Position numbers and translations under genes: made by a program | The notes under the pieces: generated by a model | Told to the model about the DNA's origin: nothing | The model's input: the letters and a program-made list of their open reading frames with translations, nothing else | The model's database searches: none | DNA from: an uncultured Lachnospiraceae bacterium | GTDB taxonomy: Bacteria; Bacillota; Clostridia; Lachnospirales; Lachnospiraceae | NCBI GenBank assembly: GCA_900315505.1 | Contig: OMZG01000006.1 | Span: forward strand, 1 to 64,000 | Direction: 5' to 3' | DNA length: 64,000 nucleotides | Part shown: positions 40,425-63,011 of the stretch, one piece after another | Numbering within the stretch: position 1 is the stretch's first letter | How the letters are laid out: the number at the start of each line of letters is the position of its first letter

Positions 40425-40498
<74 letters not shown>

Positions 40499-40524
40499 AC
40501 ATAAATGCATGTAAACATTTAAAA

Positions 40525-40595: not shown

Positions 40596-40600
40596 GTAAA

Positions 40601-40674
40601 TCGAGGTGACAGGATTCGAACCTGCGACCCCCTGGTCCCAAACCAGGTGCTCTAGCCAAACTGAGCCACACCTC
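40601..40674 (-). tRNA. tRNA-Pro(UGG)
   Basis: Anticodon loop TTTGGGA, acceptor stem CGAGGTG/CACCTCG. Confidence 0.85.
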
Positions 40675-40709
40675 GATATGTAATTCGTTTCTTCCGAAAC
40701 GCAAGTAAC

Positions 40710-48114: not shown

Positions 48115-48192
48115 TGCATGAATCCACAAAGAATAGGTTCCGGCGGGGTTATAGAAGAACTCATAGGAGCGAGGGAAGGAAGTTTACATTTA

Positions 48193-50514
48193 ATGGACAC
48201 AATCGTGGTAAAGACAAATGTGATCAAGCGTAACGGGCGTGAGGTCCGCTTCGACGAGCAGAAGATCATCAATGCGATCATGGCAGCAAATAAGGAGGTG
48301 GAGGGAATCCACCAGCTGAATCATGCACAGGTTCAGGCAGTAGCCGATGGCATCTCGAAGCAGGTGGCGCAGTCGCCGCATGCCGTCAATGTCGAGGATA
48401 TCCAGGATCTCGTCGAGAAGGGCATCATGGAGATGAGATGCTATGAGGTCGCGCAGAAGTACGTCAGATACAGATACAAGCGTGAGCTCTCCCGTAAGTC
48501 CAATACCACGGATAATGGAATCCTGGCCCTTATTGATCAGGTCAATGAGGAGGTAAAGCAGGAGAATTCCAACAAGAACCCGGTCATCAATTCCACACAG
48601 CGTGACTATATGGCTGGTGAGGTATCAAAGGATCTCACGAACCGTGTACTGCTTCCTGAAGAGATAGTCAGGGCACATAAAGAGGGAATCATTCATTTCC
48701 ATGATGCCGATTATTTTGCACAGAGAGAGCACAACTGCGATCTGATCAATCTTGAGGATATGCTTCAGAATGGCACGGTCATTTCGGAGACCATGATCGA
48801 GAAGCCGAAGAGCTTCTATACAGCCTGCAATATCACGACACAGATCGTGGCTCAGGTCGCATCGAATCAGTACGGCGGCCAGTCATTCTCACTGGCACAT
48901 CTGGCACCATTCGTAGATGTCTCCAGACAGAAGATCAGGAAGCAGGTCATCGAGGAGAGAAAAGAGGTCGGCGATGATCTCGATGAAGAAAAGGTCATGA
49001 AGATCGTAGACCACAGGCTTCAGTCGGAGATCGAGTCAGGTATCCAGACTATCCAGTATCAGCTGGTGACACTCATGACGACAAATGGGCAGACACCGTT
49101 TGTCACAATGTTTATCTATCTCGATGAGGTGCCGGAGGGACAGACAAGGGATGACCTCGCCCGTCTTGCGAAGGAGGTATTCAGACAGAGAATTCAGGGT
49201 ATCAAGAATGAAAAGGGAGTCTGGGTCACACCTGCATTCCCGAAGATCATCTACACGCTTGATGCGGATAATATCGAGGAAGGCACACCGTACTATGATC
49301 TGACGAAGCTCGCGGCAGAATGCACAGCCAAGAGGATGGTTCCTGATTATATCTCGGCGAAGGTCATGAGAGAGCTGAAGGGCGATGTATATACCTGCAT
49401 GGGCTGCCGTTCATTCCTCACGCCTGATAATGAAGACAACGCAGAGGGCCTCTGCAATGCTGGCAATAAGAGCGGAGCACTTGATTATAAAGAAGGCGAG
49501 CACAAGTATTACGGCCGTTTCAATCAGGGTGTCGTGACGATCAACCTCGTTGATGTGGCCTGCTCAGCAGTCAAGGAGTCCAATGAAAAGGGAACAGACA
49601 GATTTGATGAGTTCTGGAAGATATTCGATGACAGACTCGAGCTCTGTCACAGGGCACTTCAGTGCAGACACAACCGTCTGCTTGGCACATCATCTGATGT
49701 AGCTCCGATCCTCTGGCAGCATGGAGCCCTCGCCCGCCTGAAGAAGGGTGAGAAGATCGACAAGCTTCTCTTCGGCAATTATTCTACGATCAGCCTCGGA
49801 TACTGTGGTATTTCAGAGATGACATATGAGATGATGGGAGTGAGCCATACAGATCCTAAGGGCAAGGAATTCGCTCTGAAGGTTATGCAGCATCTCAATG
49901 ACAAGTGCGCCGAGTGGAGAAAGGCAGAGAAGATCAGCTATTCACTCTATGGCACTCCGATGGAGTCGACTACATATAAGTTTGCAAAGTGCCTGCAGAA
50001 GAGATTTGGTATCATCCCTCATGTGACAGACAAGAACTATATCACCAATAGCTATCATGTCCATGTGACAGAGGAGATAGATGCGTTCAAGAAGCTGAAG
50101 TTCGAGAGCGAGTTCCAGAAGCTCTCACCAGGCGGAGCAATCAGCTATGTCGAGGTACCGAATCTCCAGACCAATGTACCAGCAGTCCTTTCGATCATGA
50201 AGTACATTTATGAGAATATCATGTATGCAGAGCTCAATACCAAGAGTGACTACTGCGAGGTGTGCGGATATGACGGCGAGATCCGTATCGTAGAGGATGA
50301 TAATGGCAAGCTGGTATGGGAGTGCCCGAAGTGCGGCAACCGTGACCAGAACAAGATGAGCGTAGCCCGTCGTACCTGTGGCTACATTGGCACCCAGTTC
50401 TGGAACCAGGGCCGTACGCAGGAGATCCGTGACCGTGTCCTCCATCTCTCAATCCCAGAATTCGAAGGCACAGAAGAGATGAACGTCAACGCCTCAGTAA
50501 GATTTTTAATGTAA
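48193..50514 (+). CDS. nrdD: Anaerobic ribonucleoside-triphosphate reductase
   Basis: ATP-cone N-terminus, C-terminal Cys4 (CEVCG...CPKCG) and glycyl-radical motif RRTCGYIGT. RBS GAAGGA precedes the ATG at 48193. Confidence 0.9.
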   Translation: MDTIVVKTNVIKRNGREVRFDEQKIINAIMAANKEVEGIHQLNHAQVQAVADGISKQVAQSPHAVNVEDIQDLVEKGIMEMRCYEVAQKYVRYRYKRELSRKSNTTDNGILALIDQVNEEVKQENSNKNPVINSTQRDYMAGEVSKDLTNRVLLPEEIVRAHKEGIIHFHDADYFAQREHNCDLINLEDMLQNGTVISETMIEKPKSFYTACNITTQIVAQVASNQYGGQSFSLAHLAPFVDVSRQKIRKQVIEERKEVGDDLDEEKVMKIVDHRLQSEIESGIQTIQYQLVTLMTTNGQTPFVTMFIYLDEVPEGQTRDDLARLAKEVFRQRIQGIKNEKGVWVTPAFPKIIYTLDADNIEEGTPYYDLTKLAAECTAKRMVPDYISAKVMRELKGDVYTCMGCRSFLTPDNEDNAEGLCNAGNKSGALDYKEGEHKYYGRFNQGVVTINLVDVACSAVKESNEKGTDRFDEFWKIFDDRLELCHRALQCRHNRLLGTSSDVAPILWQHGALARLKKGEKIDKLLFGNYSTISLGYCGISEMTYEMMGVSHTDPKGKEFALKVMQHLNDKCAEWRKAEKISYSLYGTPMESTTYKFAKCLQKRFGIIPHVTDKNYITNSYHVHVTEEIDAFKKLKFESEFQKLSPGGAISYVEVPNLQTNVPAVLSIMKYIYENIMYAELNTKSDYCEVCGYDGEIRIVEDDNGKLVWECPKCGNRDQNKMSVARRTCGYIGTQFWNQGRTQEIRDRVLHLSIPEFEGTEEMNVNASVRFLM

Positions 50515-50542
50515 CAGAAAAAAATTTTTTTGAGAAAAGTAC

Positions 50543-50680
50543 AAAAACGTACAAAATAAGTCGTGTAAACTACTTTTCAAAAAAGCTGTTGTTTTCTTAA
50601 AAACGTACATTATTGTTCGTGTAAACTACTTTTATAGCTACATGGATAATGTACGAAAAACGTACATTATTTTTCTGAGA
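50543..50680. repeat. Roughly 40-nt direct repeats plus a palindrome at the island boundary
   Basis: AAAAACGTACA(A/T)..TCGTGTAAACTACTTTT occurs two to three times. TAATGTACG-AAAAA-CGTACATTA palindrome at ~50645-50668. Confidence 0.5.
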
Positions 50681-50705
50681 GTATTCTGAAAAAAGAACGA
50701 CCAAT

Positions 50706-50750
50706 CCCTAAACAGGATGGCCGTTCTTTTTATTTCGCGTATAATGATGA
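50706..50750. terminator. Bidirectional intrinsic terminator
   Basis: AAAAAAGAACGACC..GGCCGTTCTTTTT. Serves the end of the minus-strand operon. Confidence 0.5.
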
Positions 50751-50753: not shown

Positions 50754-53699
50754 TCAATAATAATGCCTCAGCTTAAGTCGCCGTCCTTTACAGAATGGGC
50801 AAGGCTCTCTATGACGTTTCTGGAACATGATTCGTTTGGCAGGAGACATTGGATAATGATGCCCTTGAGAACACTCCCACCAAACTTTTTTATTATAATT
50901 CTCATTTATCTGATCAGGGTCAGCCAGCAAGGAATTGTTCAGATACAACCATTCATCCATAAGATCAGGATGTTTGATCTTAAATGAATTAAATCCCGGA
51001 AGCACCTGTCTGCCGGTGCAGTAAGGACAGTCAGCTTCGCCCGAAACCATGTCTTTGATAGAAGCACTATAGCTACCATGACAGGTAGGACATATCCATT
51101 GAACGTATCTTGGTGAGCTGGAAAGCACATCATCAGTGGATATATCGTTCTCATCAGACCACAAGGAAGCGATTTCAGGATATTTGACTTTAAGGCTGTT
51201 AAATCCCGGAAGTACCTTTCTGTCATTGCAGTAAGGACAGTCAGCTTCGCCCGAAACCATGTCTTTGATAGAAGCACCATAAGTACCATGACAGGTAGGA
51301 CAAACCCATTTAACGTACTTTGCGGAGTCAGGAAAAACATCATCAGCAGATATGTCATTTTCATCAGACCACCAAGAAGCGATATCAGGGTACCTGACTT
51401 TAAGACTGTTGAATCCGGGTAGCACCTGTCTGTCATTACAGTAAGGACATTCAGCCTTGCCAGAGACAATATCCTGAATAGTACTGCTATATTTACCGCC
51501 ACAATCGGGACAGATCCAATAAAATCTGGATGCAGCATTGTAAGATATCTTATCTGGTTCTTTATCATTATCGGGATACCACATTGAAAGATACTGAGGA
51601 TAAACATCAGCAAAACTTTCTCCGGGTTTTACCCTGATGAGGGCACAGTATGGGCAACCCGTACGACCTTTTTTTAGTGCTATTATGATGCGGGCAGTCG
51701 AGGTCTTGTATCTTTTTTTACAAGTAGGGCAGATCCATGTCATAGGTATATATGAATCGTCGTAAGTACGTATTGAAAAAATGGTTCTGCCACTGGCCTG
51801 TTCATCACACATATCAACTAGCTGGGGATACTCCTCCGCGTACGGTATATCACGACTATGACCACTGCTGCACTTTTGACAGTCTATAAAGATAAGATCA
51901 TTTTTGTCTTTACCATAACGAAAACGACTTGCTATTGTTCCCCGCCATCTGTTACCACATTTTTTACACTTATAATTTACAATCTTTGCAGAATGAACAC
52001 CCTCGGAATAGATGTCAATATCAGGATTGTTATCAAAATCGAATAATGATGAAAATTCGGGTTTTACTGTAAGGACGTCATTTACTCCTTTTACTATTAC
52101 ATTGCCGACTTCACAGCATGGACAGTTCCTTGAAATAAGACGACTCTTAGCCGTTGCCTCCCATTCACGTCCGCAAACAGGACATTTCCAGAAAAAAGTT
52201 TCTCTGCTTCCGGCTTGTATAACACGTGGATCAATTCCGGCATTTTTTTCAAAATCCCAGAATCTGAGTAAATCTGGTATGTCGTATACTGATGCGATAC
52301 TATTATTCTTTTTCTGTTTTACAGTTGAACCTTTATTTATTCCGCAGTTGGGACATCCTGCAAATGATTTCTTTGTTTTGCCTCCGGTCATGCCAAAAAA
52401 CGTACTTTGCCACGCATATCCGCAGTGGGGACATTTCCAGTCGAACAGTGGAATCTTGGAGTTATAAGAAACTGAGTATGGATCCAGGCCGGTATTCTTA
52501 TCAAAATCATAATATTTTTTTGCCTGTGGGAATATGGTGAAAATATCATTGACACCTTTTTTTACGGAATAGTCTCTTTTTTCACCGCAATGAGGGCATC
52601 GGTCTGATGCATCAAGACGCACTGCTACACTTGTTTCCCATTCGTATCCACAGTCGGGACATTTCCAGTATACCCTTTTGCTAGAATTGGATGGGGTTTT
52701 TGCCGGATCCATTGTATTATGTTCTTTATCCCAGAATTTCATGAGCTTTGGCACTTCAGAAACCTTTTCCTTGTCTTCCGGCTTTATCTTTGAGGTATCC
52801 TTATGCTGACAGGGCATAAAGCGATATGTTCCGTCTTTTTTCTTATCAACACGTCTGCTCATTGCTTTACGGAATTTGCGACCGCACACGGGGCATTTCC
52901 AATTAACGACAGTTTTGGAGCCAACACCGATTTTCTTTATATCTATCCCTTCCGAAGCATTAGCGTCAAAGTCCCACTCGTTAAGTGCATCTGGCAGTAT
53001 GGTAGATATGTCATTGTATCCTGGTGATACACCATGTCCCTGATCACAGCATGGGCATTCTGCCTTTGCCTTGTATCTGCTATATACTGGTGCAGTCCAT
53101 TTAAAATGACATCTTTTACATTTCCAATGAACCGAAGGACGTTTCATCATGACAGATGTTGTATTGATATCTATCCCTTTATTTTCGTCGAAATCCCAGA
53201 AATCGACAAGTTTTTCTACTTCTGATATCATAGGGATATCTTGTCTTTTATGAGTACAGGAAACGAACAGATATGTTCCGTCCTTTTGCTTACGAATTCT
53301 ATTTCCAATCGCCATCCGAAACTCACGATGACAGACAGGACACTTCCAGTATGCCATCTTCTTGGAGCCTACGCCTTCATTCTCCAGGTGGATGTCTTCA
53401 ACGTCATTCTTTTCTTTGTCCCATTCATCCATAATGCCAGGTACAAGCGTAACTGCATCATTATGTCCTGACCATATGACTTTTTTCTGTTCGCAGCGGG
53501 GACACTCACCCTTTGAGATATAACGGTTATAAACCGACGCTTTCCACTCATACCCACATCTCTTACATTTCCAGGAGAGGAGTGGTTTCTGTGCAAGGGC
53601 TGATGTCATATTTATATCGATTCCTTTATTTTTCTCAAAGTTCCAGAATTTTGTAATCTTTGGAACCGATGATGCCGGAATGAATTCTTTCACTTTCAT
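50754..53699 (-). CDS. 981-aa protein of about 13 tandem four-Cys zinc-ribbon modules (DUF4379-like)
   Basis: Each module reads W(K/I)CxxC(G/H)..W...(11-14 aa)..CPxC, then a linker V.xGxND..T..P....EWD...N. The C-terminal three modules are almost identical at the DNA level. Confidence 0.7.
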   Translation of the reverse strand: MKVKEFIPASSVPKITKFWNFEKNKGIDINMTSALAQKPLLSWKCKRCGYEWKASVYNRYISKGECPRCEQKKVIWSGHNDAVTLVPGIMDEWDKEKNDVEDIHLENEGVGSKKMAYWKCPVCHREFRMAIGNRIRKQKDGTYLFVSCTHKRQDIPMISEVEKLVDFWDFDENKGIDINTTSVMMKRPSVHWKCKRCHFKWTAPVYSRYKAKAECPCCDQGHGVSPGYNDISTILPDALNEWDFDANASEGIDIKKIGVGSKTVVNWKCPVCGRKFRKAMSRRVDKKKDGTYRFMPCQHKDTSKIKPEDKEKVSEVPKLMKFWDKEHNTMDPAKTPSNSSKRVYWKCPDCGYEWETSVAVRLDASDRCPHCGEKRDYSVKKGVNDIFTIFPQAKKYYDFDKNTGLDPYSVSYNSKIPLFDWKCPHCGYAWQSTFFGMTGGKTKKSFAGCPNCGINKGSTVKQKKNNSIASVYDIPDLLRFWDFEKNAGIDPRVIQAGSRETFFWKCPVCGREWEATAKSRLISRNCPCCEVGNVIVKGVNDVLTVKPEFSSLFDFDNNPDIDIYSEGVHSAKIVNYKCKKCGNRWRGTIASRFRYGKDKNDLIFIDCQKCSSGHSRDIPYAEEYPQLVDMCDEQASGRTIFSIRTYDDSYIPMTWICPTCKKRYKTSTARIIIALKKGRTGCPYCALIRVKPGESFADVYPQYLSMWYPDNDKEPDKISYNAASRFYWICPDCGGKYSSTIQDIVSGKAECPYCNDRQVLPGFNSLKVRYPDIASWWSDENDISADDVFPDSAKYVKWVCPTCHGTYGASIKDMVSGEADCPYCNDRKVLPGFNSLKVKYPEIASLWSDENDISTDDVLSSSPRYVQWICPTCHGSYSASIKDMVSGEADCPYCTGRQVLPGFNSFKIKHPDLMDEWLYLNNSLLADPDQINENYNKKVWWECSQGHHYPMSPAKRIMFQKRHREPCPFCKGRRLKLRHYY

Positions 53700-53708: not shown

Positions 53709-54464
53709 TCACTCGAATTTATCGAACAATCCCTTTACTACGTTGCTTTCGATTCCTGAAGAATCGTTTGCTGTTTCATCTTCCGTCTGAGAAGTGTCTG
53801 TACTATCATCAGACGTATCTATATCAGTATCAGGTCTTATGGCCCTGGCTTCGGCTTTTTCTGCATCAATATGTGTGGACACCGTACCTTTGAGCTCACC
53901 GTCTTCCTTTAACAGCTCATTAGCCATCTCTGGATATACATTATCTTCTATGAACTTTTTCATGTACTTATTCTTTTTACGGAGTTCGGTCAACTCTGTC
54001 TTTTGTTCTACATATTTCTGCCTGAGCTCAACGTTATCCTTTTTTATCTTATCCAGCTCGGAACTCATTTTATCGTGCTCTTCAACGAGTCTGCGGTTTT
54101 CCTGCTTTATCGTAATAGCTGACTCAGAAATATTTCTGTAATGGGTATCCAGTTCCGTCAGCGATCTTCTCATTGCATCACGGGACTGGTTGTTGTCGAT
54201 AAAGGCATCCACATCGAGCGTGGTATATGTTGTGATGTTTACCGATGCTTTTTCAATATTCCCCTTCAAAGAGGAGATATAACTCCTTGCGGCCGTATTT
54301 CTGCGAAGGGTTGTAACGGAATATCCTGTGAATCCGTTATCACTTACATACTGGGCAATCTGCGGAAACCTCAGCAGAGAGCCGTTTCCATGACACACGT
54401 CGTTATAATATTTTTTTATAAGATCAAGAAGGACGTCATCCTCGATCTGCTTTTTCCTTGCCAT
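53709..54464 (-). CDS. Coiled-coil protein with acidic Ser/Thr/Asp-rich tail
   Basis: 251 aa. Central heptad region ELDKIKKDNVELRQKYVEQKTELTELRKK. 9 nt upstream of the zinc-ribbon gene. Confidence 0.5.
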   Translation of the reverse strand: MARKKQIEDDVLLDLIKKYYNDVCHGNGSLLRFPQIAQYVSDNGFTGYSVTTLRRNTAARSYISSLKGNIEKASVNITTYTTLDVDAFIDNNQSRDAMRRSLTELDTHYRNISESAITIKQENRRLVEEHDKMSSELDKIKKDNVELRQKYVEQKTELTELRKKNKYMKKFIEDNVYPEMANELLKEDGELKGTVSTHIDAEKAEARAIRPDTDIDTSDDSTDTSQTEDETANDSSGIESNVVKGLFDKFE

Positions 54465-54502: not shown

Positions 54503-56179
54503 TTAACTTTCCTGTGTCTTTTTCCTGTCATACATTTTTTTCTGCATGAGATAATTTCTGTAAGACGTGGAACTTTCCTGGACTTTTAACATTGCTTCTC
54601 CTATGTCTTCAACAGCACCTTTGTCGTGCCTTACTCTGTCTACGGCTTCTACAAGAGCCGTACAGTCGTCTTTAAGATCTCTTCTGTATATATCATCACC
54701 CTCGAAGAAGGAGATTGACGGTCCTCTGTAGAACCGGCATGAAAGGCAGTAACCGATTTCACCGTTCTCGCCACATGCTTTACGGCAATCCGTTATACTG
54801 CCGCTCATATATGCACTGGAATAGCATGTGCCACCATCTGCAAGTGAAACGTGCTTTTCAGCGGGAGGAAGAAGACCCTGTACAGAGATCTGATACTTTT
54901 TATCGCTGCCTATGTATTTCCTGTATTCCCTGTATGTCTGACATTCTATCATGGTTTCAAGGTTACTGTAATAATGGGCTGCCATTTCTTCATTGGTATG
55001 CCCTGCAAGGAACATTGCCGTGGCCGGAGTGCCGCCTTCCTGCATGAGATTGATAAGTGCGACATGCCTTGCATCTCCGAGACGTATCCTCTGTATCTCC
55101 TTATCTTCCAGATGTCTTGTCTCCTCGTCTGAAATGATGCGGTATCCGTATATTCCACAAATAACCTCTGAATAAAAATATCTGAGTATCGTGACCATGT
55201 TCACATATGTGAGAAAACGGCTGTTGCTGTGTTTGCCCTGCTTCCATTTTCTGTAGTGCGGATCAGTGACAAAAAGCGTATCTATATCAGTGCTGTCATA
55301 TTTATCCGTTGCTTTCAGATATCCGTTGATCTCTTCATAAAGTTTGTCCGGTATACGAAAAGTAGTAGTAAAATAATCCGCGCTGATCTTATAGGACTTT
55401 TCACGCTTGCTGCCTTTAAGCCTGTTCCTGCGAAGCGTTATATAATGCTTTCCCTTCGCATCAGTTGAGAGACAGTCCCTTGTTGTGAGAAGGAATTCCC
55501 TCGGTCGTAGAGGTATACATCCTGTCAGGTTCCACCAGATATAAAGGGGCAGGTAGAACAGTCTGTCCTCGGTATTGAGATCATGACTCCAGTAATCGTT
55601 TATGATGTCATTAAATACAGCGTATGTATCGAAAGCTGCAAGAGATCGTGAACGCGGGCCTTTTTGCTTTGCAATCCTGGTCTCCGAACAGATATCGAGC
55701 ATATCCATAATGTCATTTGTAAAATCACCTGATGTATCAGGAAGCATGGAGAAAAAGTCTGAACACTGGGCAGGTCGTGTGAGTGTATAGCCTGCCTCTT
55801 CTGTGCCTATAGCCACCGGATCGTTGGCTGTTATATGCCTGAGATCGAGTATAACATTTTCCATTGATACAAGGGCTGTCTTACTGAAGAGCGTTGTAAT
55901 ATATGATTTAACCCTTGAAACGAATTCATCGAAGGACAGATTCAGTCCCTTGGCATAGTATTCATCATACTTTTCTCTGTCAAACGAGAAATGAAGTCCG
56001 ACATTTGAATACTCATCTGTTGTGTACCATACATCATCCTCAAATGATGAGCCTTCTTTTATGACACCGGCATCCCTGAACGCGTCAAAACGCTCCCTGG
56101 CAGCCGATACTGAAGTCTGATCAAGAAGTATGAAGTTAAGTGATGAGGAGAAAAGCTCCTCTGCCGTGGAAACATTCAT
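54503..56179 (-). CDS. Tyrosine recombinase, third of trio, with C-terminal Cys-rich extension
   Basis: Catalytic residues in order: LRPREF (R), ARHVALINLM (RH), AGHTNEEMAAHYY (H..Y). Extra Cys-rich segment CxxxxC...CxxC after the catalytic domain. Confidence 0.65.
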   Translation of the reverse strand: MNVSTAEELFSSSLNFILLDQTSVSAARERFDAFRDAGVIKEGSSFEDDVWYTTDEYSNVGLHFSFDREKYDEYYAKGLNLSFDEFVSRVKSYITTLFSKTALVSMENVILDLRHITANDPVAIGTEEAGYTLTRPAQCSDFFSMLPDTSGDFTNDIMDMLDICSETRIAKQKGPRSRSLAAFDTYAVFNDIINDYWSHDLNTEDRLFYLPLYIWWNLTGCIPLRPREFLLTTRDCLSTDAKGKHYITLRRNRLKGSKREKSYKISADYFTTTFRIPDKLYEEINGYLKATDKYDSTDIDTLFVTDPHYRKWKQGKHSNSRFLTYVNMVTILRYFYSEVICGIYGYRIISDEETRHLEDKEIQRIRLGDARHVALINLMQEGGTPATAMFLAGHTNEEMAAHYYSNLETMIECQTYREYRKYIGSDKKYQISVQGLLPPAEKHVSLADGGTCYSSAYMSGSITDCRKACGENGEIGYCLSCRFYRGPSISFFEGDDIYRRDLKDDCTALVEAVDRVRHDKGAVEDIGEAMLKVQESSTSYRNYLMQKKMYDRKKTQES

Positions 56180-58089
56180 GCGACCGCCTCCTTCAGATAA
56201 TTTTCGTACTGTTCATATGTCTTTTCACCATACTGATCCTTTATGCAGGTGAGCATCTCATCCAGTTTCGGGAGAAGTATTTCCTTTGCAATGCTACCGT
56301 ATTTCTGTTTTTCAAGCGGTGATGTGGCAGCATTATACAGCTTCTGTATGCGCTTTATTTCTGATATGACGAGAAGAAACGTCGATTTTGTGCTTATTTC
56401 ATACGGACACCCCACGCACTGCCTGCTGTCAGTGTACGGACAGATCTTTCCTATTGCTGATTTAAGGCATAGTGATTCTGCCTCTTTCGAGAAGGCCTGT
56501 CCTGAGCCTATGCGGTGCAGAGCTGTAAGTATATCGGTGTCGGAACCTGAGGCCTCTCTGACGGCCAGCACGGCTCTCTGGCGGCCTTCTTCTACAAGAG
56601 AGACGACCTCATCTGTTTCTTTCGGGGAAAGATTCAGAAGATGGTGGGCCTCCGTCTGCTCTTCAACGCTTAATGTTTTATAATCTTTCCCCTCGATCAT
56701 TTCAAGGAGCATCGACGAGACAAATGAACATACACCTCTTTCCAACAGCTCATAGGCAACGAAGTCGGGTGTAAGACCATCGAATTTTGCATCTTTCAGA
56801 TATTCCATTGTCGTATTTGCAAACTCTCCGAAACTTCCTTTGTGTGAACGGGCGAGAGAAGCAAATATATATCCTTTCACGCTTGCGGCATTGGCATCAA
56901 CGTCCCCGTCTTCCCGCAGTATCTCATCAGCGTGCATATATATGGACTGAAGATATGATTTTGTGGCGGATCTGGATCTGAAATCAGATTCAAGAAACAG
57001 GTTTCCGATATCCTCTCCCATGTATCTGGTTATCTGTTCATATGTCGAGATCTTTCTTATAATAGGAGCGTCAGGGTTGCCATCAATCTGTCTGTGGGCT
57101 TCTGCAAGGGCAAATAATATCCCGAAATGTGTCTCACATGAGTGCGGCACTGTAAATTTTACATATTCGTCATGTCCCCGTCCTGATGTCTTGTTTACCG
57201 TAAGAGGTAAAAGGCATAGCCTCTGTGTGATGGAACGCAGAACACTCTGTGCGTCGTCGTCCGTAAACTCTCCGTTGCGTACTTTCCGCAATACTTCATC
57301 CGGTGGATATGGAAGATCGGGATGATATATCCGTTCAAGATCGGTCAGCCGCAGGGAGCAGATGAAGTTGATCGACAGATAAAGCCATGTATCCGTATAG
57401 TCTGTTGAATCAGCAGCTTTTGCATACATGTCGTTTTCTTCGATATAGTCCTCATTCAGCAGATAGTAGAGCAGTTCCAGATATTCATCCATTTCATAGG
57501 CTTCGTTCTGGATATCCATAGTGTATCGGTTTCCCATGACATAATCACGATTGTAATTTGTCTTCGTTCTCTGCCTGAGCCAGGAGATAAAGAAAGTGAG
57601 ATCATCTCCGAATGCCTTTGTGAGTTCATCCGCTGCTGCTTTCACAATGCTTTCCATATCAGTATCTGTATAGAACATCATCTCCCTGTCAAGATGGTAC
57701 AGGAGAAAATCGGTGATATACATTACCGATTCATCAGGAAGCTCTACGGCCTTTGCAAATTCTTCAAGATAGCGGGCAGTAGAGGGAAAACGTACAGACA
57801 GATCTCCTGAAAGAGTATCTTCGCTGAAATCCGATGATAAAAATGATGACAGATTATCCTTCAGCAGTTCTGCATCATCTTCGGATAAGGTAAAACCGCC
57901 ATCTGCATTACCGTCTTTTACCGGCTTTATCCCAAACCATCCGTTGCTTTCAAGAAAGAGCACGGTATCGTCCATTGATTTGTTATATGGATTGCTGCCG
58001 TTTAATGCCTCCGTTACGATCTTATTAAGGCTTTCCATCACCATGCCCCCTTTCGGCTGCCCACATATGATAGTCGAACAGCTCATCAT
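56176..58089 (-). CDS. Putative divergent tyrosine recombinase (Tn554 TnpB-like size), second of trio
   Basis: 637 aa. Overlaps neighbours by 4 nt and 65 nt. Candidate box-I SLRLTDLE and ARSHKGS..EY. The assignment is weak. Confidence 0.4.
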   Translation of the reverse strand: MMSCSTIICGQPKGGMVMESLNKIVTEALNGSNPYNKSMDDTVLFLESNGWFGIKPVKDGNADGGFTLSEDDAELLKDNLSSFLSSDFSEDTLSGDLSVRFPSTARYLEEFAKAVELPDESVMYITDFLLYHLDREMMFYTDTDMESIVKAAADELTKAFGDDLTFFISWLRQRTKTNYNRDYVMGNRYTMDIQNEAYEMDEYLELLYYLLNEDYIEENDMYAKAADSTDYTDTWLYLSINFICSLRLTDLERIYHPDLPYPPDEVLRKVRNGEFTDDDAQSVLRSITQRLCLLPLTVNKTSGRGHDEYVKFTVPHSCETHFGILFALAEAHRQIDGNPDAPIIRKISTYEQITRYMGEDIGNLFLESDFRSRSATKSYLQSIYMHADEILREDGDVDANAASVKGYIFASLARSHKGSFGEFANTTMEYLKDAKFDGLTPDFVAYELLERGVCSFVSSMLLEMIEGKDYKTLSVEEQTEAHHLLNLSPKETDEVVSLVEEGRQRAVLAVREASGSDTDILTALHRIGSGQAFSKEAESLCLKSAIGKICPYTDSRQCVGCPYEISTKSTFLLVISEIKRIQKLYNAATSPLEKQKYGSIAKEILLPKLDEMLTCIKDQYGEKTYEQYENYLKEAVA

Positions 58090-59389
58090 TTATCTTTGTA
58101 TATTTTCTTTCAAGCTCTCCCTTGTTTTTCAGGTATGTGAGCGAGCTGTCAGGCGAAGTGTCTCCCCTGAAATGCATGAGTGTTCCGATATCGGTAATGC
58201 CTGAAAGAACGAGCTGTACCGTGAACCAGTGTCTGAAAATATGTGGTGATATGTTATGCTCCAGTAGTATTTTCCCATATGTGACAAGTTCAGGATCATC
58301 ACTGGATAGATAGAGCGGTATCATTTCGTCTTTTATGATGTCCTGAAAACGCTGATAATATGACTTGTATGTCATCGCCATGTGTCTGCTATTGACTGTG
58401 AACGGGCCATAATCGGTCTCATATGGTATGTTGTTCATGTATTCGATGTAGATATTATATGCCTTTATAAAAGCATCACGGAAGATGTCAGGTATATCCT
58501 GCATACGCTCTTTCTTGATCTTTCCGACAGGGACGGCATCGCTCCTGAGATTGTATTCATGATTGAGATCGATACGGATCTTTGTGACTGTCAAACACTT
58601 GGTATAGCCGGTTTCGATACAGTCGATGAGAATTCCTGGTCCTAACGGACTGTCCGTGCGGCGTACATTACAGGCTTCAGACGGACGAAGACCGCAGAAT
58701 GCCGAGAGTATCACAAGTCCGAGCATGTCCTTGTGATGCTGGAGGATATGGTCGAAAAGAAGCCTAAAAGCCTTGTCCGGCATATCCCTGAATATGGCAT
58801 GGGTGCTTCCTGTATATTTCACATCAAAGACGGGAACCTGTGTATCTATGACCTTTCCATGCTTGTCACGCTTCTTGACTGTCCTGTACAGATCTTTCAC
58901 CCTGATGCTGCACCTGGTCTTTCTGTCTTCTATCAGGAGCTGTAGAAAGTCCAGAACAGATGATACGGCTCTCTCGACAGTGGCTTTGGCGCGGGATGTA
59001 TCATCGTCGTCATCAGGAAGAGTGCAGGTGCCGTAAGCATTGAGATAATCTTTTACGATATCGACTGTGAGCTTGTCAAGAGACCTGATCCCGCGTTCAA
59101 AAAATGCATAGTTAAGTAAAGGTGTGACAAATGCAAATCTGCTGTTGCCATCATCCTGTATGCTGCGTACTTTTGAATGGGTTGATCTCACATATTTGTG
59201 AAAATCTGTGAATCTGATGGTTCCGTCACTGTATTCGAGGACTATGAACTGTCGCGGTATTATAAGGTTATCCGATGTAACGTAATGGTGTTTATAAACC
59301 TTGAACCTTACCGGTACAGGCGTATCAGATATGGATATGCTGCCAGTTGTATCCATAAGCGTCTCCTCTCCGGGAGGCGGATGTATCAT
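58025..59389 (-). CDS. Tyrosine recombinase/integrase, first of trio
   Basis: GLRPSEACNV (box I Arg), HIFRHWF (HxxRH) and LTYL (Tyr). RBS AAAGGA. Confidence 0.7.
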   Translation of the reverse strand: MIHPPPGEETLMDTTGSISISDTPVPVRFKVYKHHYVTSDNLIIPRQFIVLEYSDGTIRFTDFHKYVRSTHSKVRSIQDDGNSRFAFVTPLLNYAFFERGIRSLDKLTVDIVKDYLNAYGTCTLPDDDDDTSRAKATVERAVSSVLDFLQLLIEDRKTRCSIRVKDLYRTVKKRDKHGKVIDTQVPVFDVKYTGSTHAIFRDMPDKAFRLLFDHILQHHKDMLGLVILSAFCGLRPSEACNVRRTDSPLGPGILIDCIETGYTKCLTVTKIRIDLNHEYNLRSDAVPVGKIKKERMQDIPDIFRDAFIKAYNIYIEYMNNIPYETDYGPFTVNSRHMAMTYKSYYQRFQDIIKDEMIPLYLSSDDPELVTYGKILLEHNISPHIFRHWFTVQLVLSGITDIGTLMHFRGDTSPDSSLTYLKNKGELERKYTKINDELFDYHMWAAERGHGDGKP

Positions 59390-59512
59390 CGGCAGTCCTT
59401 TGATTTAAATGATTTATGATAAATAATCCCTTGACTTATAGCAGCCAAAGTGTTATATTTACCTTAATTGAAAAGAACTTGATGATATGGGCGCCGACCC
59501 GTGTCATACTTA

Positions 59513-59557
59513 AAGCATCAGTTACCGCCAAGTAAAGCTGGTGCTTTTTTGTTGCTT
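59513..59557 (+). terminator. Possible stem-loop terminator
   Basis: AGCATCAG..CTGGTGCT followed by T6. Confidence 0.3.
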
Positions 59558-59693
59558 GTATCTCACATTATACATCTTACTTCTGAAGTTTTCAAGGTCA
59601 TTCGACAATAATATTATCTCATTTTTATCTATTGTTATTGTTTTTTATATAATATATGCTATAATGTATAGACATAGGAGGAATACCACGCTT

Positions 59694-62600
59694 ATGGCAA
59701 GGACATTCAACGAAGATACACGGGTGAAGATACCGGCAACACTCCAGTTCCTGCGGATTGGATACAACTATCAGTCAATGCAGGATTCTGATATAGATTT
59801 CGAGACAAAGATATTTGTGAACAGGTTCAGACCGGCTGTAGAAAAGATCAACGGCAGGTCATTCTCTGATGAAGAAATTGAGTTTCTGCTTACGGAAATC
59901 CGCACTCTCATAAAGAGCAATGACATGGGTCATGCCTTTTATAACAGGCTCATCAGCACCACTGATGATGTAAAGCTAGTAGACTGGGATGATATTCAGA
60001 AGAATGACTTCGCTGTCGTTGATGAGCTTCCATTTACCGTAGAAAAAGGCACAGAAGAAGGCTCTTTCAGACCTGATATCAACATACTGATCAATGGGAT
60101 GCCGTTGGCCTTTCTTGAAGTCAAAAAGCCTAATAATGAAGGCACCATTCAGGCAGAGTTTGACCGTATGCTCAACAGAAGGCTTTCAAATAATGCTTAT
60201 CGAAAGTTCTTCAATCTCATACAGTTCGTATCCTTTTCCAATAATATGGAGTATGAGAACAGTGATGCAGATGCCGTAGAGCTTGTAAAGGCAGGTTCTT
60301 TCTATACGACCCCGAACGGCCAGCAGACCAGCTTCTCTTTCTTCCGTGAGGACGAAAAAGGATATATAGAGGGGTATCAATATACATCATTAAGTGATGA
60401 CCTATGCAGGAAGGTAATAAAGGATCTCGGTTATAACCCGGCTGTATTTGACACAGATGAATTTCAGACTGCAAATGTTACAGATTCTCCATGTAACCGC
60501 TTCATCACATCAATGTATGATAAGGAGCGGTTCCTTTTCATACTGAAATACGGGATACTATATATAAAAGGCAGGATACCGGAAAAGCATATCATGAGGT
60601 ATCCACAATTCTTTGCTACCAGAGCCATTATAAAAAGACTTGAAAGCGGCGGTAAGCGTGGTATCATATGGCATACACAGGGTTCGGGAAAGACGGAGCT
60701 TGCCTGCTATGCAAACAGGATAATACGGGATTACTATGCAAAGAAGAATGTCGTAACACGTTTCTTCTTTGTGGTAGACCGCCTTGAACTGCTAAGACAA
60801 GACAACAGTGAATTTTCATCAAGGCATTTTTCTGTCACTAACTGCACCAAGAAGTCCGGTTCGGGCGGCTTTGACGAAGAGCTTGCCCGCACGATGCCTG
60901 TCATAAAGTCCGACGACATTGGTGAATTCGTTGTCGTGAACATCCAGAAGTTTGAAGATGCCATTCCTAAAGCCAGAAACGAGTATGATACCAATGTGCA
61001 GAGGATATTCTTCATAGACGAGGCACACCGTTCATACAAGATGAACGGGCAGTATTTCAAGAACCTTATTCTCTGTGACAGAAACGCTGTATTCATCGCC
61101 CTTACGGGGACACCGCTGCTGACAAAGAAAGAGCGCAGCAATCTGAAGTTCGGTGACTACATACATAAGTATTTTTATGACAAGAGCATCGCTGACGGCT
61201 ATACACTCCGAATCAAGAAGGAAAAGATCAAGTCAGTAGTAAAGAAGGATATCAAGGAAGATCTCGAGCTGCAGTCAGATGAAATAGACTTTGATTCCGC
61301 AACCGTGTACGAATCTGATGCCTTTGTAGGCTCTCTCTGCAAGTATATAGAAAAGGACTTCAAGAATTTCCGTATCACGAATGGCGACCAGTCAATAGGC
61401 GGTATGGTCGTCTGCAAGTCAAATGAACAGGCAAAAAAAATCTGCCAGTGGTTTGTTGAAAACAGCAGACTTTCGGCAGGCCTTGTTATTTCTGACAGCG
61501 ATCCGAAGCAGGATGAGATAAACAAGAACAACCAGCTTGACTTTAAAAACGAGGGTCATCCTGATCTGCTCATAGTCCATTATATGCTTACGACAGGATA
61601 TGATGTAAAGCGCCTGAAGAAAATGTACCTGCTTCGTGGGCCGCATGCTCAGAACCTGCTCCAGACCATAAGCCGTGTCAACAGGCCGTACAAAGCTCCG
61701 AACGGAAAGATATACAAGTTCGGTTATATCACCGATTTTGTGGATATAGACAAAGAGTATGACCGTACTGTTGATGACTACCTCAAAGAACTCGAGAAGG
61801 ATATAAATAACGAGGATGACGATGAGGAAGGACACAACAGCCTTAGCGGACTTCTGGTAGACGTTGACAACATAAGTAGGACATATGAACAGGCGAAGTC
61901 TGAGTTTGAAAAGATAGCTCCGTCTGAAGATCTTGAACAGTTCAGCAGTAATCTTACAATGTTCAACAAAGACACTCTCCACCGCATTAAACGGCTTCTG
62001 AACACTATGCAGGACTGTTATGTGGAGTTCCTTCTGTCTCAGGCAGACGAGCTTGCAGATAAGGTTGATATCGATTTGATAAAGAGAAAAATCCGGTCTG
62101 TACAGGAACGTATAGATTTTGTAAATCTTAAGGAACAACCTGTGGAGATGATGGATATCATTTCTGACAAGGAAATTGTAGAGATATTCTATGAGTTTCT
62201 GAAGACATCTGTCGATATTATAGACCTGTCAAAGTACACCGATGGAGATGAAAGCGGCTCATATAAGAAATTTACTGAGACGATGAAAAAAGTACAGTCT
62301 GAGATAAAGAAGAACCGCAACAAGGATGACATAAGGATAATACATCTAAATGAACTTCTGAAGCAGCTATTCAACAATCTTGATATAACAGACGTGTCTG
62401 ATCTCGATAGCCTTTCTGAGAAGATGAAGAAGATTCTCGAAGAAGCAGAAGCTATAAACCGAGAGAATGACCGGCTGGCTGCTATATATGACGATAATTT
62501 TGCTATGGTCAAGAGTTATCAGGATGCTGTAGCCAAACGTCCGGACCTTGATAATAAGGACATCGAGCAGATGATGCTTGCTATTTATGCTGAGATCAAA

Positions 62601-62777
62601 GATGTCATAGGCATTGATACCCTAGCCATCCAGGGACGGGAAGGTTTTATAGATGAGACAAAGAAGAAAGTAATAAAGAAGCTCCTGAAGTCCGGTTTGT
62701 ACCAGAAACTGCAGCTTAAAGACTGGATAGATCCGCTTCTTTCTGAGATGTATACAAACTTACAGAACTTTAATTAA
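59694..62777 (+). CDS. hsdR: Type I restriction enzyme R subunit
   Basis: HSDR_N PD-(D/E)XK (FLEVKKP), helicase Walker A (QGSGKTE) and DEAH (FFIDEAHRS). RBS AGGAGGA precedes the ATG at 59694. Confidence 0.9.
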   Translation: MARTFNEDTRVKIPATLQFLRIGYNYQSMQDSDIDFETKIFVNRFRPAVEKINGRSFSDEEIEFLLTEIRTLIKSNDMGHAFYNRLISTTDDVKLVDWDDIQKNDFAVVDELPFTVEKGTEEGSFRPDINILINGMPLAFLEVKKPNNEGTIQAEFDRMLNRRLSNNAYRKFFNLIQFVSFSNNMEYENSDADAVELVKAGSFYTTPNGQQTSFSFFREDEKGYIEGYQYTSLSDDLCRKVIKDLGYNPAVFDTDEFQTANVTDSPCNRFITSMYDKERFLFILKYGILYIKGRIPEKHIMRYPQFFATRAIIKRLESGGKRGIIWHTQGSGKTELACYANRIIRDYYAKKNVVTRFFFVVDRLELLRQDNSEFSSRHFSVTNCTKKSGSGGFDEELARTMPVIKSDDIGEFVVVNIQKFEDAIPKARNEYDTNVQRIFFIDEAHRSYKMNGQYFKNLILCDRNAVFIALTGTPLLTKKERSNLKFGDYIHKYFYDKSIADGYTLRIKKEKIKSVVKKDIKEDLELQSDEIDFDSATVYESDAFVGSLCKYIEKDFKNFRITNGDQSIGGMVVCKSNEQAKKICQWFVENSRLSAGLVISDSDPKQDEINKNNQLDFKNEGHPDLLIVHYMLTTGYDVKRLKKMYLLRGPHAQNLLQTISRVNRPYKAPNGKIYKFGYITDFVDIDKEYDRTVDDYLKELEKDINNEDDDEEGHNSLSGLLVDVDNISRTYEQAKSEFEKIAPSEDLEQFSSNLTMFNKDTLHRIKRLLNTMQDCYVEFLLSQADELADKVDIDLIKRKIRSVQERIDFVNLKEQPVEMMDIISDKEIVEIFYEFLKTSVDIIDLSKYTDGDESGSYKKFTETMKKVQSEIKKNRNKDDIRIIHLNELLKQLFNNLDITDVSDLDSLSEKMKKILEEAEAINRENDRLAAIYDDNFAMVKSYQDAVAKRPDLDNKDIEQMMLAIYAEIKDVIGIDTLAIQGREGFIDETKKKVIKKLLKSGLYQKLQLKDWIDPLLSEMYTNLQNFN

Positions 62778-62788
62778 GGAAACAAAAC

Positions 62789-63010
62789 ATGAGAAGGGTT
62801 ATATGCTATGGGCCTTTAGGAGAAACAACTATTTATAATAGCATTGCAGAGGCAGCAAGAAAACTCAATGCATCAGCATCCAGTATAGAGGAAAGTTGTC
62901 GTAGACCAAAATACAGTTACAATGTATATGGCGACTCATGGTCTGATACTCTTAACGAAATGAGTCGATATGCATACAATTTCCAGTATTACGATGGTAA
63001 AGGAGAATGA
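62789..63010 (+). CDS. Small hypothetical protein, possibly a DNA-binding HTH protein
   Basis: 73 aa. The ..SIAEAARKL..S.SSI pattern resembles NUMOD/HTH modules. Confidence 0.35.
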   Translation: MRRVICYGPLGETTIYNSIAEAARKLNASASSIEESCRRPKYSYNVYGDSWSDTLNEMSRYAYNFQYYDGKGE

Positions 63011-63011
63011 A

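Follow-up and report, generated by a model that had tools for sequence, protein, structure and literature searches.

We asked what a bacterial protein composed of tandem DUF4379 modules might do, and what its position beside recombinase genes means, in an uncultured Lachnospiraceae bacterium. The gene, here termed Z, is an ATG-to-stop open reading frame on the minus strand of the window, the 64,000-nt stretch of DNA that was analysed. A 981-aa product with about 13 tandem modules had been predicted from the sequence, and this was borne out at exactly 50754–53699. The assignment to DUF4379 also held: a Pfam check on the modules matched PF14311 in 13 stretches (E 1.1e-131, 429.5 bits; gathering cut-off, 24.5 bits), and alignment of the 13 modules recovered both the proposed module motif (W-x-C-x2-C-G/H..W ... 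C-P-x-C) and the linker pattern between modules (G-x-N-D ... P..L..EWD..KN). The modules are 69–83 aa long and span residues 15–89 (M1), 90–163 (M2), 164–238 (M3), 239–316 (M4), 317–392 (M5), 393–475 (M6), 476–547 (M7), 548–626 (M8), 627–699 (M9), 700–769 (M10), 770–839 (M11), 840–912 (M12) and 913–981 (M13), with 23 CxxC motifs in the protein as a whole. The original prediction had four Cys in every module, which is true of 10 of the 13; the others carry His in place of Cys, at the second knuckle in M2 and M4 (C-x-H, as FVSCTHK and FMPCQHK) and at the first knuckle in M13 (C-x3-H-H). When 120 homologous arrays, comprising 1,474 modules, were aligned, Cys filled the four ligand positions in 99, 90, 100 and 94% of modules, and the module surfaces were highly variable.

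Structural comparison placed Z with a small set of solved proteins. The AF2 model of Z (pLDDT 81, pTM 0.36) matched 6yxx_E2 (E 2.3e-10), mS66 (2.2e-5) and mt-SAF33 (5.2e-4) in Foldseek searches, and phmmer comparison of the array with the solved chains also returned mS66 (E 2.5e-6). By HMM, sequence and fold these chains belong to the same family and likewise contain tandem modules; however, they are eukaryotic ribosomal or assembly proteins with 1–4 modules, whereas Z is bacterial, has 13 modules and no other domain, and is borne by a mobile element. The Z modules are classed as DUF4379 treble-clef units that are predicted to bind zinc. Homology to a known enzyme was not seen: Pfam and NCBIfam profile searches found no enzymatic or sensor domain in Z and no nuclease domain of the HNH, PD-(D/E)XK/Vsr or GIY-YIG type, and PADLOC defence-system models gave no match. 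PHROG endonuclease families 559 and 681 do match Z, with the overlap restricted to the array portion of the profiles. With pI values of 6.3–8.9 and a mean net charge of +0.8 per module, the arrays are not markedly basic.

One block of the array varies in copy number. M10–M12 (50964–51602, minus strand) form a triplication of 3 × 210 nt, in which M11 and M12 are 76% identical in amino acids and 82% in nucleotides, and M10 is 50–53% and 61–62% identical to them, respectively. The last three modules had been described as almost identical at the nucleotide level, which is wrong because identity within M10–M12, the modules that do resemble one another, is 61–82%; M13, the last module, is unrelated to the block (36–41% nucleotide identity). 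Nor does DNA-level alignment of the modules, at these identities, support recent expansion or homogenization. The proposal that the block is recombinogenic fared better when repeat number was compared: allele P0001 is 99.8% identical to Z and lacks exactly residues 757–896, corresponding to two 70-aa units, and a second, recombinase-free locus has array alleles of 1,023 and 941 aa that differ by one 82-aa, module-sized indel, in addition to a third allele of 1,017 aa.

The A-B-C-D-Z operon

Z was found in a constant genetic setting. The genes A-B-C-D-Z occur in the same order and on the same strand in all 15 complete loci, even though their arrays are only 26–44% identical; 13 of these loci are the window, L012 and 11 of the 14 loci retrieved with a B-family probe blind to Z, and the remaining two are L044 and L048 (array identity 26–27%). 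In most loci, D and Z are separated by −4 to +9 nt. In the window, the D stop codon lies 9 nt before the Z ATG and is spanned by the RBS-like sequence GAGTGAGGG, features that mark Z as the last, translationally coupled gene of a five-gene operon. The original prediction called it unusual that Z shares an operon with recombinases and a coiled-coil protein; this arrangement is confirmed as a conserved family trait, and the association with recombinases is genuine and of greater significance than had been supposed.

Sequence comparisons support the identification of A and C as tyrosine recombinases. A (454 aa; 58025–59389, minus strand) is a divergent member with invariant R224, K281, H372-x-x-R375 and Y408, which matches a PHROG integrase (E 4e-11) and XerA over both catalytic boxes (E 0.0045); its true start is probably at 59356. 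C (558 aa; 54503–56179, minus strand) is a large tyrosine recombinase with invariant R225, K255, R371, H394 and Y403/Y404, and aligns with WP_063477316 of Paenibacillus plasmid pAZOPL1 (hhalign 99.7%, E 2e-26), a protein that itself passes the Pfam Phage_integrase cut-off. The intervening gene, B (637 aa; 56176–58089, minus strand), is the best conserved of the block in family alignments, and its family comprises 685 representative clusters in public data. Its invariant R247...K300...R373...H416...Y430 pattern may correspond to catalytic residues; B had no Pfam match, no PDB sequence match and no significant fold match, its AF2 model (pLDDT 67) placed lambda integrase among non-significant fold matches only, and hhalign to A was not significant, so that B was rejected as a recognisable tyrosine recombinase. 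B relatives of about 1,000 aa were likewise rejected as A-B fusions, and their N-terminal extensions had no Pfam match and no zinc motifs.

D (251 aa; 53709–54464, minus strand) consists, by family alignment, of a conserved N-terminal domain (residues 1–97), a coiled coil, a VYPEIANELL motif and a C-terminal SGSxVIxGLF motif. Among PADLOC models D gave a weak SduA match (E 3.4e-4), and A, B and C gave none. The best sigma-70-like promoter of the operon (TTGAAA-17-TATAAT, 11/12 matches) lies at 59567–59595 on the minus strand. Between it and A is a conserved hairpin at 59505–59545 (AAAAAAGCACC..CTTTACTTGGCGG..) that is common to L020 and L025 and has a similar counterpart in L027; its origin as a displaced nrdD terminator was ruled out, as the native neighbour of nrdD is nrdG. 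A terminator-like hairpin with 14-nt arms that are 93% complementary (inverted repeat I1; 50690–50731, minus strand) directly follows the Z stop.

A site-specific integrative element at the nrdD 3′ end

The operon lies within an element of 19.3 kb in this genome, the far end of which is outside the window; the original prediction had missed that Z belongs to a mobile element with defined boundaries, inserted at the 3′ end of nrdD (48118–50514, plus strand). Two empty-site contigs from a metagenome DNA scan (L051 and L052) revealed that the element is inserted after position 50500, four nucleotides before the native nrdD stop, and that nrdG is the native neighbour of nrdD in element-free strains. 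When NrdD and ThiE were looked up as exact proteins, every recorded strain proved to have the element. Insertion converts the NrdD C terminus from ...NASVK* to ...NASVRFLM*, with the terminal GTAAC of the element supplying the new TAA stop (50512–50514); an origin of the last 21 NrdD residues from the insertion was ruled out, since just the last residue changes. The Z-side terminus (50511–50531) reads GTAACAG followed by the palindrome AAAAAAATTTTTTT, and this motif is conserved across 11 loci. Ten junction-specific bases, GATTTTTAAT (50501–50510), separate the terminal GTAAC from host DNA; they are absent from both the empty site and the junction of L050, a locus where identity with the window is high up to ...CTGTTAC and about 70% thereafter.

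Inside this terminus are three subterminal repeat units with 56–57-bp spacing (50543–50675), each of the form AAGTAGTTTACACGA ... AATGTACGTTTTT except that the third lacks the first half; a perfect inverted repeat, ATAATGTACG-TTTTT-CGTACATTAT, lies among them at 50646–50670. The architecture recurs in other loci, and the repeats are presumed to be recombinase arm- and core-type sites. The repeats co-vary with the conserved recombinases and not with Z. The termini are inverted GTAAC sequences with AATGTACG clusters at both ends, and of the 8 exact matches to AATGTACG within 23 kb, 7 are found at one or other end of the element.

A near-identical element occupies the same nrdD position in another species, where nrdD DNA is about 70% and NrdD protein 67% identical to that of the window. 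Other loci use different targets that are also gene 3′ ends, namely HU (five loci), an integrase gene (three loci), recD2 and NlpC/P60. The empty site, both junctions, the matching ends and the shared target in different hosts establish a site-specific integrative element. Near-identical DNA of the element was not found in plasmids, phage matches were to distant arrays only, and no known RNA families were found in the element.

The variable cargo of these elements is located upstream of A, and the 3′ side of the operon abuts the element end. In the window the cargo starts with a type I restriction–modification (R-M) module (59694–64000, plus strand) of hsdR (59694–62777), a 73-aa open reading frame and hsdM, of which hsdR matches PADLOC type I R-M models; beyond the window it continues with hsdS, a resolvase, a PIF1-type helicase and an nrdG-like gene before the far end. 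A minimal 9-kb element with Z as its sole cargo was ruled out by the empty site and by the far end 19.3 kb away. We assign Z to the element core because its linkage and spacing are constant and the variable cargo is elsewhere; the five-gene operon is the constant core of a site-specific integrative element present in Lachnospiraceae and other Firmicutes.

Relationship to described elements

A close parallel by gene order is provided by the SE elements, strand-biased circularizing integrative elements with the core intA-tfp-intB-srap (PMC10214605). Both have, by type, an ordinary tyrosine recombinase, a large middle protein, a large tyrosine recombinase and a coiled-coil auxiliary, encoded by overlapping genes, together with site-specific insertion, extra junction bases and no transfer genes. 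However, SE elements are found in Gammaproteobacteria and have four core genes, with the operon at the left end and cargo after srap (PMC10214605), whereas the present element is from Firmicutes, has Z as a fifth core gene, reads its operon outward to the end and carries cargo upstream of A, so the SE layout is not seen here. Compared by description, SE Tfp lacks RHRY, whereas B keeps an R..K..R..H..Y pattern. GInt elements (ginABCD, PMC5385486) similarly have three recombinase-type genes and a small fourth protein; one end is AT-rich, the cargo varies, they insert at a fixed gene end, and their junctions show sequence variants (PMC5385486). In GInt, though, the non-catalytic member is third rather than second, cargo follows ginD, the hosts are Proteobacteria and there is no zinc-finger array (PMC5385486). 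The present element shares the AT-rich repeat end but not the rest of that layout, as the slot after D is always occupied by Z and cargo lies upstream of A.

A module on Paenibacillus lautus plasmid pAZOPL1 (L030) carries an A-type integrase and homologues of B and C in the same order (B, 21% identity over 63% of the query; C, 99.7% probability). It has no DUF4379 gene, and five tandem HTH_17 (excisionase-type) DNA-binding domains are fused to its B. Similarity between D and the fourth protein of this module was not significant. Tn554 has tnpA, tnpB and tnpC, encoding two recombinases, one a tyrosine recombinase of about 630 aa, and the 125-aa TnpC. By description, it shares with the present element a Firmicutes host, an ordinary and a large recombinase, a small auxiliary, strong target specificity and imperfect inverted ends; it differs in having two recombinases and no array, against three large recombinase-type genes, the 251-aa D and Z. 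By position, D is the counterpart of Srap, GinD and TnpC. RIT elements contain only three tyrosine recombinases (315–410 aa), all of which have a catalytic Tyr, flanked by 34-bp inverted repeats. The present element does not fit that definition, as its corresponding proteins measure 454, 637 and 558 aa and it has cargo and two additional core genes. The element family, which occurs in gut Firmicutes, is apparently undescribed.

Array evolution and candidate roles of Z

Z is under purifying selection as estimated from coding sequences, with dN/dS of 0.09–0.13 compared with 0.05–0.12 for A, B and C; diversifying selection was thereby ruled out. These values bear on whether Z is a decaying, functionless relic of a homing-endonuclease-type gene that has lost its nuclease domain. 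Close relatives do include array-plus-nuclease-like proteins beside inteins and TnpB, and module number drifts among alleles. Nevertheless, open reading frames stay intact across arrays of 26–44% identity, ligand columns are 90–100% conserved, four independent comparisons gave dN/dS values of about 0.1, and operon position and coupling are constant. We regard decay as highly improbable and largely refuted by the selection data.

Arrays can also be exchanged. L044 and L048 have near-identical ends, A, B and C that are 93–96% identical, and different targets, recD2 and NlpC/P60, yet their Z proteins are 67% identical and Z dS is 1.9 versus 0.31–0.35, which indicates that the array was replaced by recombination. 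This association of an array swap with a different target comes from a single close pair; in the two close pairs that share a target, the arrays have remained collinear. The target is nrdD in both the window and L025, the arrays of which are 29% identical, and overall array similarity showed no clear relation to the target gene.

The recombinase-free locus no longer has A, B, C or the start codon of D, and retains an intact array with dN/dS of 0.14. It keeps the end repeats, an in-frame D N terminus without its start and an abutting integrase fragment, and is hence a decayed element; these traces ruled out an independent two-gene D–Z system. Persistence of an intact array in a decayed element suggests a role that is not tied to recombination in cis. 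Z and the C-terminal part of D could accordingly form a fixed passenger with a function of its own outside recombination, for example in regulation, defence, anti-defence or element maintenance, situated in the slot where SE and GInt cargo starts. The intact array, its three length alleles and its dN/dS would fit such a passenger, as would the start of GInt cargo right after ginD and the type I R-M defence cargo of the present element. Set against this are the absence of PADLOC, enzymatic and sensor-domain matches in Z and the behaviour of true cargo, which is variable and upstream of A; Z, by contrast, is always present at the same position and is translationally coupled to D. Moreover, Z dS at the remnant locus (0.21) exceeds flank divergence (1–3% of nucleotides), so the selection signal there may partly reflect recombination with functional copies. 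On balance, we consider a passenger role possible but rather doubtful.

In general terms, a multivalent nucleic-acid or protein binder is the most reasonable description of Z. The specific reading that we rank first, tentatively and by analogy, is that Z may be a nuclease-free DNA-recognition or architectural subunit of an integration machine resembling those of SE, GInt and Tn554. DNA binding is suggested by viral DUF4379 arrays. Arrays of giant viruses and phages (including PHROG 559 and 681) share the fold and sequence family of Z and reside in selfish DNA, for which recognition of long DNA sites is a necessity; unlike Z, which lacks a nuclease domain, they sit in nuclease-annotated proteins. 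There were 110 viral structural matches to the array, many annotated as restriction or homing endonucleases, and P0117 combines an array with a sub-threshold DUF559/MTES_1575 domain. CapR/DUF4379-like domains have also been proposed as DNA-binding modules of homing endonucleases from phage group II introns (PMC12350094). The Paenibacillus plasmid module offers a parallel, as the tandem array fused to its B homologue consists of DNA-binding domains. Some nuclease annotations are hollow, as no nuclease domain was detected in the phage 'HNH endonuclease' MEW1 gp45. Several observations count against this reading: the solved relatives are solely trypanosomatid mitoribosome parts, a ribonucleoprotein setting; the arrays are not markedly basic and do not clearly follow the target; an intact array persists in the decayed element; and the conserved subterminal repeats vary together with the recombinases rather than with Z.

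Those same relatives, all mitoribosomal components or assembly factors, raise the alternative that Z is a protein- or RNA-binding scaffold, which would organise the recombinase complex through protein contacts or bind RNA. Near-neutral charge, the variability of module surfaces, the low pTM of the model, which would fit flexible beads on a string, and the resemblance of the D coiled coil and conserved C-terminal motif to an interaction partner are consistent with a scaffold. However, the viral proteins that bear arrays are annotated as nucleases acting on DNA, structured RNA was not found in the element, and 13 modules far exceed the need for bridging four proteins. A scaffold without DNA reading therefore seems quite unlikely to us.

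As a DNA-recognition or architectural subunit, Z would work with D as an adaptor and with the three recombinase-type proteins. Z might pick long target DNA at gene 3′ ends. TnsD, which directs Tn7 insertion just beyond the glmS 3′ end, offers a likeness in function only: a non-catalytic DNA-recognition subunit of the TnsD/TniQ kind would explain Z, although Tn7 uses a DDE transposase rather than a tyrosine recombinase and Z has no TniQ match in Pfam. Alternatively, Z might act like tandem Xis molecules and shape a large att nucleoprotein complex. Every module would combine a constant zinc scaffold with a variable surface, and swapping or resizing arrays would for that reason change the bound target. 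The strongest form of this proposal, which we deem unlikely, is that the arrays are modular DNA-address readers, with about one module per few base pairs, that set the integration site of the five-protein element. If that were true, exchanging or resizing arrays, as between L044 and L048, would retarget the element, making it a naturally programmable integration system, and the DUF4379 domain would gain a DNA-recognition code.

Several hundred long DUF4379 arrays, nearly all of them unnamed, can now be placed in a concrete genetic setting, an integrative element with multiple recombinases whose fifth constant gene encodes the array. This element is common in gut Lachnospiraceae, bears defence cargo and moves between species. 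The mechanism of SE, GInt and Tn554 elements, which were believed to need three or four proteins, is poorly understood, and a Firmicutes branch with an added array of 8–20 modules provides a handle on site choice or recombination-complex assembly. If the modules read DNA, they would constitute a new modular DNA-recognition scaffold, which would also explain the presence of such arrays on viral endonuclease-like proteins.

The array protein and its relatives

The open reading frame of Z runs from ATG to stop exactly at 50754–53699 on the minus strand and encodes 981 aa. The original prediction had described a DUF4379 protein built from tandem zinc-ribbon modules with a recurring linker, and both points were borne out: Pfam places PF14311 (DUF4379, 'probable treble clef zinc finger') on 13 stretches (E = 1.1e-131, 429.5 bits), and alignment of the 13 units gives the shared pattern P..L..EWD..KN ... 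W-x-C-x2-C-G..W ... R ... C-P-x-C ... G-x-N-D. Cut at the first knuckle, the units (M1–M13) span 69–83 aa; Z contains 23 CxxC motifs, and ten of the 13 modules have four cysteines, the second knuckle reading C-x-H in M2 and M4 and the first C-x3-H-H in M13. The near-identical terminal repeats also claimed were not recovered. The related units are M10–M12 (50964–51602, minus strand; 61–82% nucleotide identity), with M11 and M12 sharing 76% amino acid and 82% nucleotide identity and M10 matching either at 50–53% and 61–62%; M13, the true last module, is related to them only at family level. The M1/M3 and M2/M4 pairs (48–50% amino acid identity) reveal an older duplication of a two-module unit. 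Searches of Pfam and NCBIfam detected no catalytic domain in Z, which is a non-catalytic DUF4379 array, and PADLOC no defence-system match. A second reading frame of exactly 981 aa (27176–30121) encodes an M16-family (PreP-like) peptidase, the equal length being coincidental.

At E ≤ 1e-5, Z matches at least 366 proteins, nearly all of them DUF4379-only arrays of 580–1,450 aa. Only a handful carry a source name at all, 'zinc-ribbon domain-containing protein'. The best 120 relatives have 8–20 modules (median 13). Across their 1,474 modules the ligand columns are cysteine in 99, 90, 100 and 94%; the remaining conserved positions, mainly aromatic, Gly, Pro or Asn-Asp, look structural, and individual modules carry net charges between −10 and +12 (mean +0.8). 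The module combines a constant scaffold and variable surfaces. Modelling with AlphaFold2 (pLDDT 81, pTM 0.36) confidently predicts a beta-hairpin and short helix per module with a two-helix linker, and leaves the arrangement between modules undefined.

The five-gene block and the inserted element

Z closes a minus-strand operon in which it follows A (454 aa), B (637 aa), C (558 aa) and D (251 aa), and the identical protein occurs in the same setting on at least 15 metagenome contigs. A B-family probe, independent of Z, recovered 14 genome loci in Lachnospiraceae, Oscillospiraceae, Oribacterium, Clostridium and Secundilactobacillus, 11 of which have a complete A-B-C-D-Z block in the same order and strand; of the others, one loses Z at the contig end (L022), one stops before D (L016) and one is degraded with Z kept (L028). 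Anaerosporobacter faecicola has the same block with an array 31% identical, as do two further loci with arrays only 26–27% identical; complete loci total 15. Block genes abut or overlap, with a D-to-Z spacing of −4 to +9 nt in most loci; in the window the D TGA lies 9 nt ahead of the Z ATG, within a GAGTGAGGG stretch. Between the operon promoter and A, a hairpin (59505–59545) with conserved sequence (AAAAAAGCACC..CTTTACTTGGCGG) is shared with L020 and L025, and a similar one occupies the same position in L027; it had no Rfam match.

Protein A matches a PHROG integrase (4e-11) and XerA across both catalytic boxes, and R224, K281, H372-x-x-R375 and Y408 are invariant in its family, which identifies it as a divergent tyrosine recombinase. 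C is a large tyrosine recombinase: it aligns, at 99.7% hhalign probability, with a Paenibacillus plasmid protein that itself passes the Pfam Phage_integrase cut-off, and its family has invariant R225, K255, R371, H394 and Y403/404. B, the best-conserved block protein (685 representative clusters in public data), had no Pfam, PDB or significant fold match, with lambda integrase among the non-significant hits only; an R..K..R..H..Y pattern that is invariant in B is no more than suggestive. In D, a conserved N-terminal domain is accompanied by a coiled coil, a VYPEIANELL motif and a C-terminal SGSxVIxGLF motif. Many distant B-family members (P0333–P0409) reach about 1,000 aa through N-terminal extensions of 370–450 aa, which have no Pfam match and show HTH-like 'SEAAE.L.VS' motifs by eye; a fusion to A was rejected. 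Another protein (P0303, 1,025 aa) joins the N-terminal ~385 residues of B straight to nine DUF4379 modules; it probably arose by a deletion that removed the remainder of B together with C and D. A distantly related four-gene module on Paenibacillus lautus plasmid pAZOPL1 (L030; NZ_CP032413.1, ~107.3–113.3 kb) encodes an integrase, a B homologue (835 aa) that carries five HTH_17 domains in its N-terminal part, a tyrosine recombinase (543 aa) and a further protein of 196 aa, and has no DUF4379 gene.

A scan with the tail of nrdD, the target gene, identified two contigs from element-free strains (nrdD 97–98% identical to the window) in which nrdD, ending ...NASVK*, is separated from the downstream nrdG by 179 bp. 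Identity between window and empty site ends after 50500, four bases ahead of the native nrdD stop, and on L053, a longer contig of the window's strain, homology resumes 19.3 kb on, just ahead of the nrdG ATG. With the element present nrdD ends ...NASVRFLM*; because the element's terminal GTAAC provides a new TAA, as it does in two species (window 50498–50515; L050 ~3150), the target remains intact with a slightly altered C-terminus. The length of NrdD varies from strain to strain (795, 796 or 798 aa), which suggests small differences close to the junction. Ten extra bases at the window junction (50501–50510) are absent from both the empty site and the L050 junction.

Across the insertion the genes run Z, D, C, B, A; hsdR, a 73-aa ORF, hsdM, hsdS; a 60-aa ORF, a resolvase, a PIF1-type helicase; and a 176-aa nrdG-like gene. 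The Z-side end combines three units at a 56–57-bp spacing with a perfect 10-5-10 inverted repeat, an A7T7 palindrome and a terminal CTGTTAC; the far end spans ~330 bp, closes in ...GTAGTTAC and contains (A)ATGTACG or CGTACAT(T) motifs, at least seven in all. Of eight exact AATGTACG copies in 23 kb, seven sit at these two ends; the whole island is therefore one element, of which the window holds only part. The cargo (window 59694–64000 and L053:10001–19151) comprises a type I restriction-modification system (hsdR, 73-aa ORF, hsdM, hsdS), a serine resolvase with an HTH and the PIF1-type helicase. GC content falls from ~0.48 to 0.41–0.45 from ~50 kb to the window end. The nrdG-like gene (L053:19242–19772; 71% nucleotide identity to host nrdG) adjoins the far end, immediately ahead of native nrdG, which suggests that imprecise excision from an earlier nrdD|nrdG insertion site captured a host gene. 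Elsewhere in the window, a 117-nt highly structured palindromic repeat (30143–30259, predicted −56 kcal/mol) just after the M16 peptidase gene is REP- or MITE-like, since an 88%-identical copy fills the nrdD–nrdG spacer of element-free strains, and six minus-strand tRNA genes (Lys, Gln, His, Arg, Gly, Pro) lie at 40067–40676.

The Z-side architecture recurs at 11 other loci, where the motifs vary by lineage. Clusters of far-end motifs occur 1.7 kb (L025) and 5.3 kb (L029) upstream of A, and the genes in between differ; the cargo upstream of A is therefore variable and A-B-C-D-Z constant. Other insertions occupy gene 3' ends: HU (five loci), nrdD (L025), an integrase gene (three loci), recD2 and NlpC/P60. 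In another species (L050), whose nrdD DNA is only ~70% identical, a near-identical element extends up to ...CTGTTAC at the same nrdD position, which shows recent horizontal transfer and site specificity. Z is a core gene of this mobile, site-specific, multi-recombinase element and is co-translated.

The DUF4379 family, which has solved structures, and the multi-recombinase elements SE, GInt, Tn554 and RIT were already known. A-B-C-D appears to match the SE core intA-tfp-intB-srap (PMC10214605) in protein type and order, and also resembles GInt ginABCD (PMC5385486) and Tn554 tnpABC. We assign the present element to none of the four, because it departs from the layout features of each: the cargo lies upstream of an operon that is read outward, up to the end of the element, three large recombinase-type genes are joined by D and a fifth core gene, and the hosts are Firmicutes. 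Within incomplete literature coverage we found no link between DUF4379 and such elements, papers naming the domain concerning other contexts, and no source with a name for these proteins.

Selection, replacement and persistence of the array

Z and D diverge faster than their neighbours (identity to the window proteins 26–44% and 29–40%, versus 40–58% for A, B and C). The dN/dS of Z (0.09–0.13) lies in the same range as that of A, B and C (0.05–0.12), so Z is under ordinary purifying selection. Values near 0.1 speak against Z being a functionless remnant, a reading we regard as essentially excluded. Between L044 and L048, A, B, C and the element end are 93–96% identical, D 83% and Z 67% with three module-sized indels, and dS is 1.9 for Z versus 0.31–0.35 for A, B and C; recombination has therefore replaced the array and part of D. 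In this single case of replacement the two elements have different targets, and in the close same-target pairs L018/L019 and L021/L029 the arrays are collinear; when all loci are compared, the similarity of the arrays shows no overall correspondence with the target gene. P0001, an allele 99.8% identical to the window array, lacks exactly two 70-aa units, so that unit number is polymorphic. Z is selectively maintained, and can be swapped and resized.

One recombinase-free locus is a decayed element, since the end repeats are still present beside a D that lacks a start codon and is abutted by a foreign integrase fragment. It retains intact arrays of 1,023, 1,017 and 941 aa, with a dN/dS of 0.14 between the 1,023- and 941-aa alleles. 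Such persistence favours the main rival explanation, in which Z would be a fixed passenger serving some separate function; we nonetheless consider this rather unlikely. The decayed element (L009–L015, L042–L043) adjoins an NlpC/P60 gene, has a duplicated terminal A/T-palindrome-ACTTAC motif and is widespread within a single species, one cluster having 583 member sequences.

A possible role in DNA recognition

The only significant solved-structure matches of Z are the trypanosomatid mitoribosome proteins mS66, mt-SAF33 and 6yxx_E2, the last labelled 'DUF4379 domain-containing protein'. These mitoribosomal relatives and the near-neutral module charge favour Z as a protein or RNA scaffold, a role we think improbable. 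Among viral structure models Z has 110 significant matches, many of them arrays in giant-virus or phage proteins named as nucleases (restriction endonuclease, putative or homing endonuclease, Csr/MutH/HJR nuclease, DUF2726). PHROG families annotated as endonuclease match Z through the array part only, the 'HNH endonuclease' of phage MEW1 consists only of DUF4379 and CapR modules, and the nuclease-type domain of P0117, another related protein, is below threshold. Related CapR/DUF4379-like domains have been proposed as DNA-binding modules of phage homing endonucleases (PMC12350094). A DUF4379 array interrupted midway by a sub-threshold DUF559/MTES_1575 domain (L046:6308–13886) has a homing-endonuclease-like setting, with a gene for an intein-containing DNA methylase on one side and one for an IS605-type TnpB on the other.

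Our tentative preference is for a role in DNA recognition, because the same arrays sit in viral proteins annotated as DNA nucleases, because the elements target long, specific sites at gene ends, and because the five tandem excisionase-type HTH_17 domains of the Paenibacillus B homologue are another tandem DNA-binding array in a like machine. Z would then read or shape DNA on behalf of the element's recombinases.
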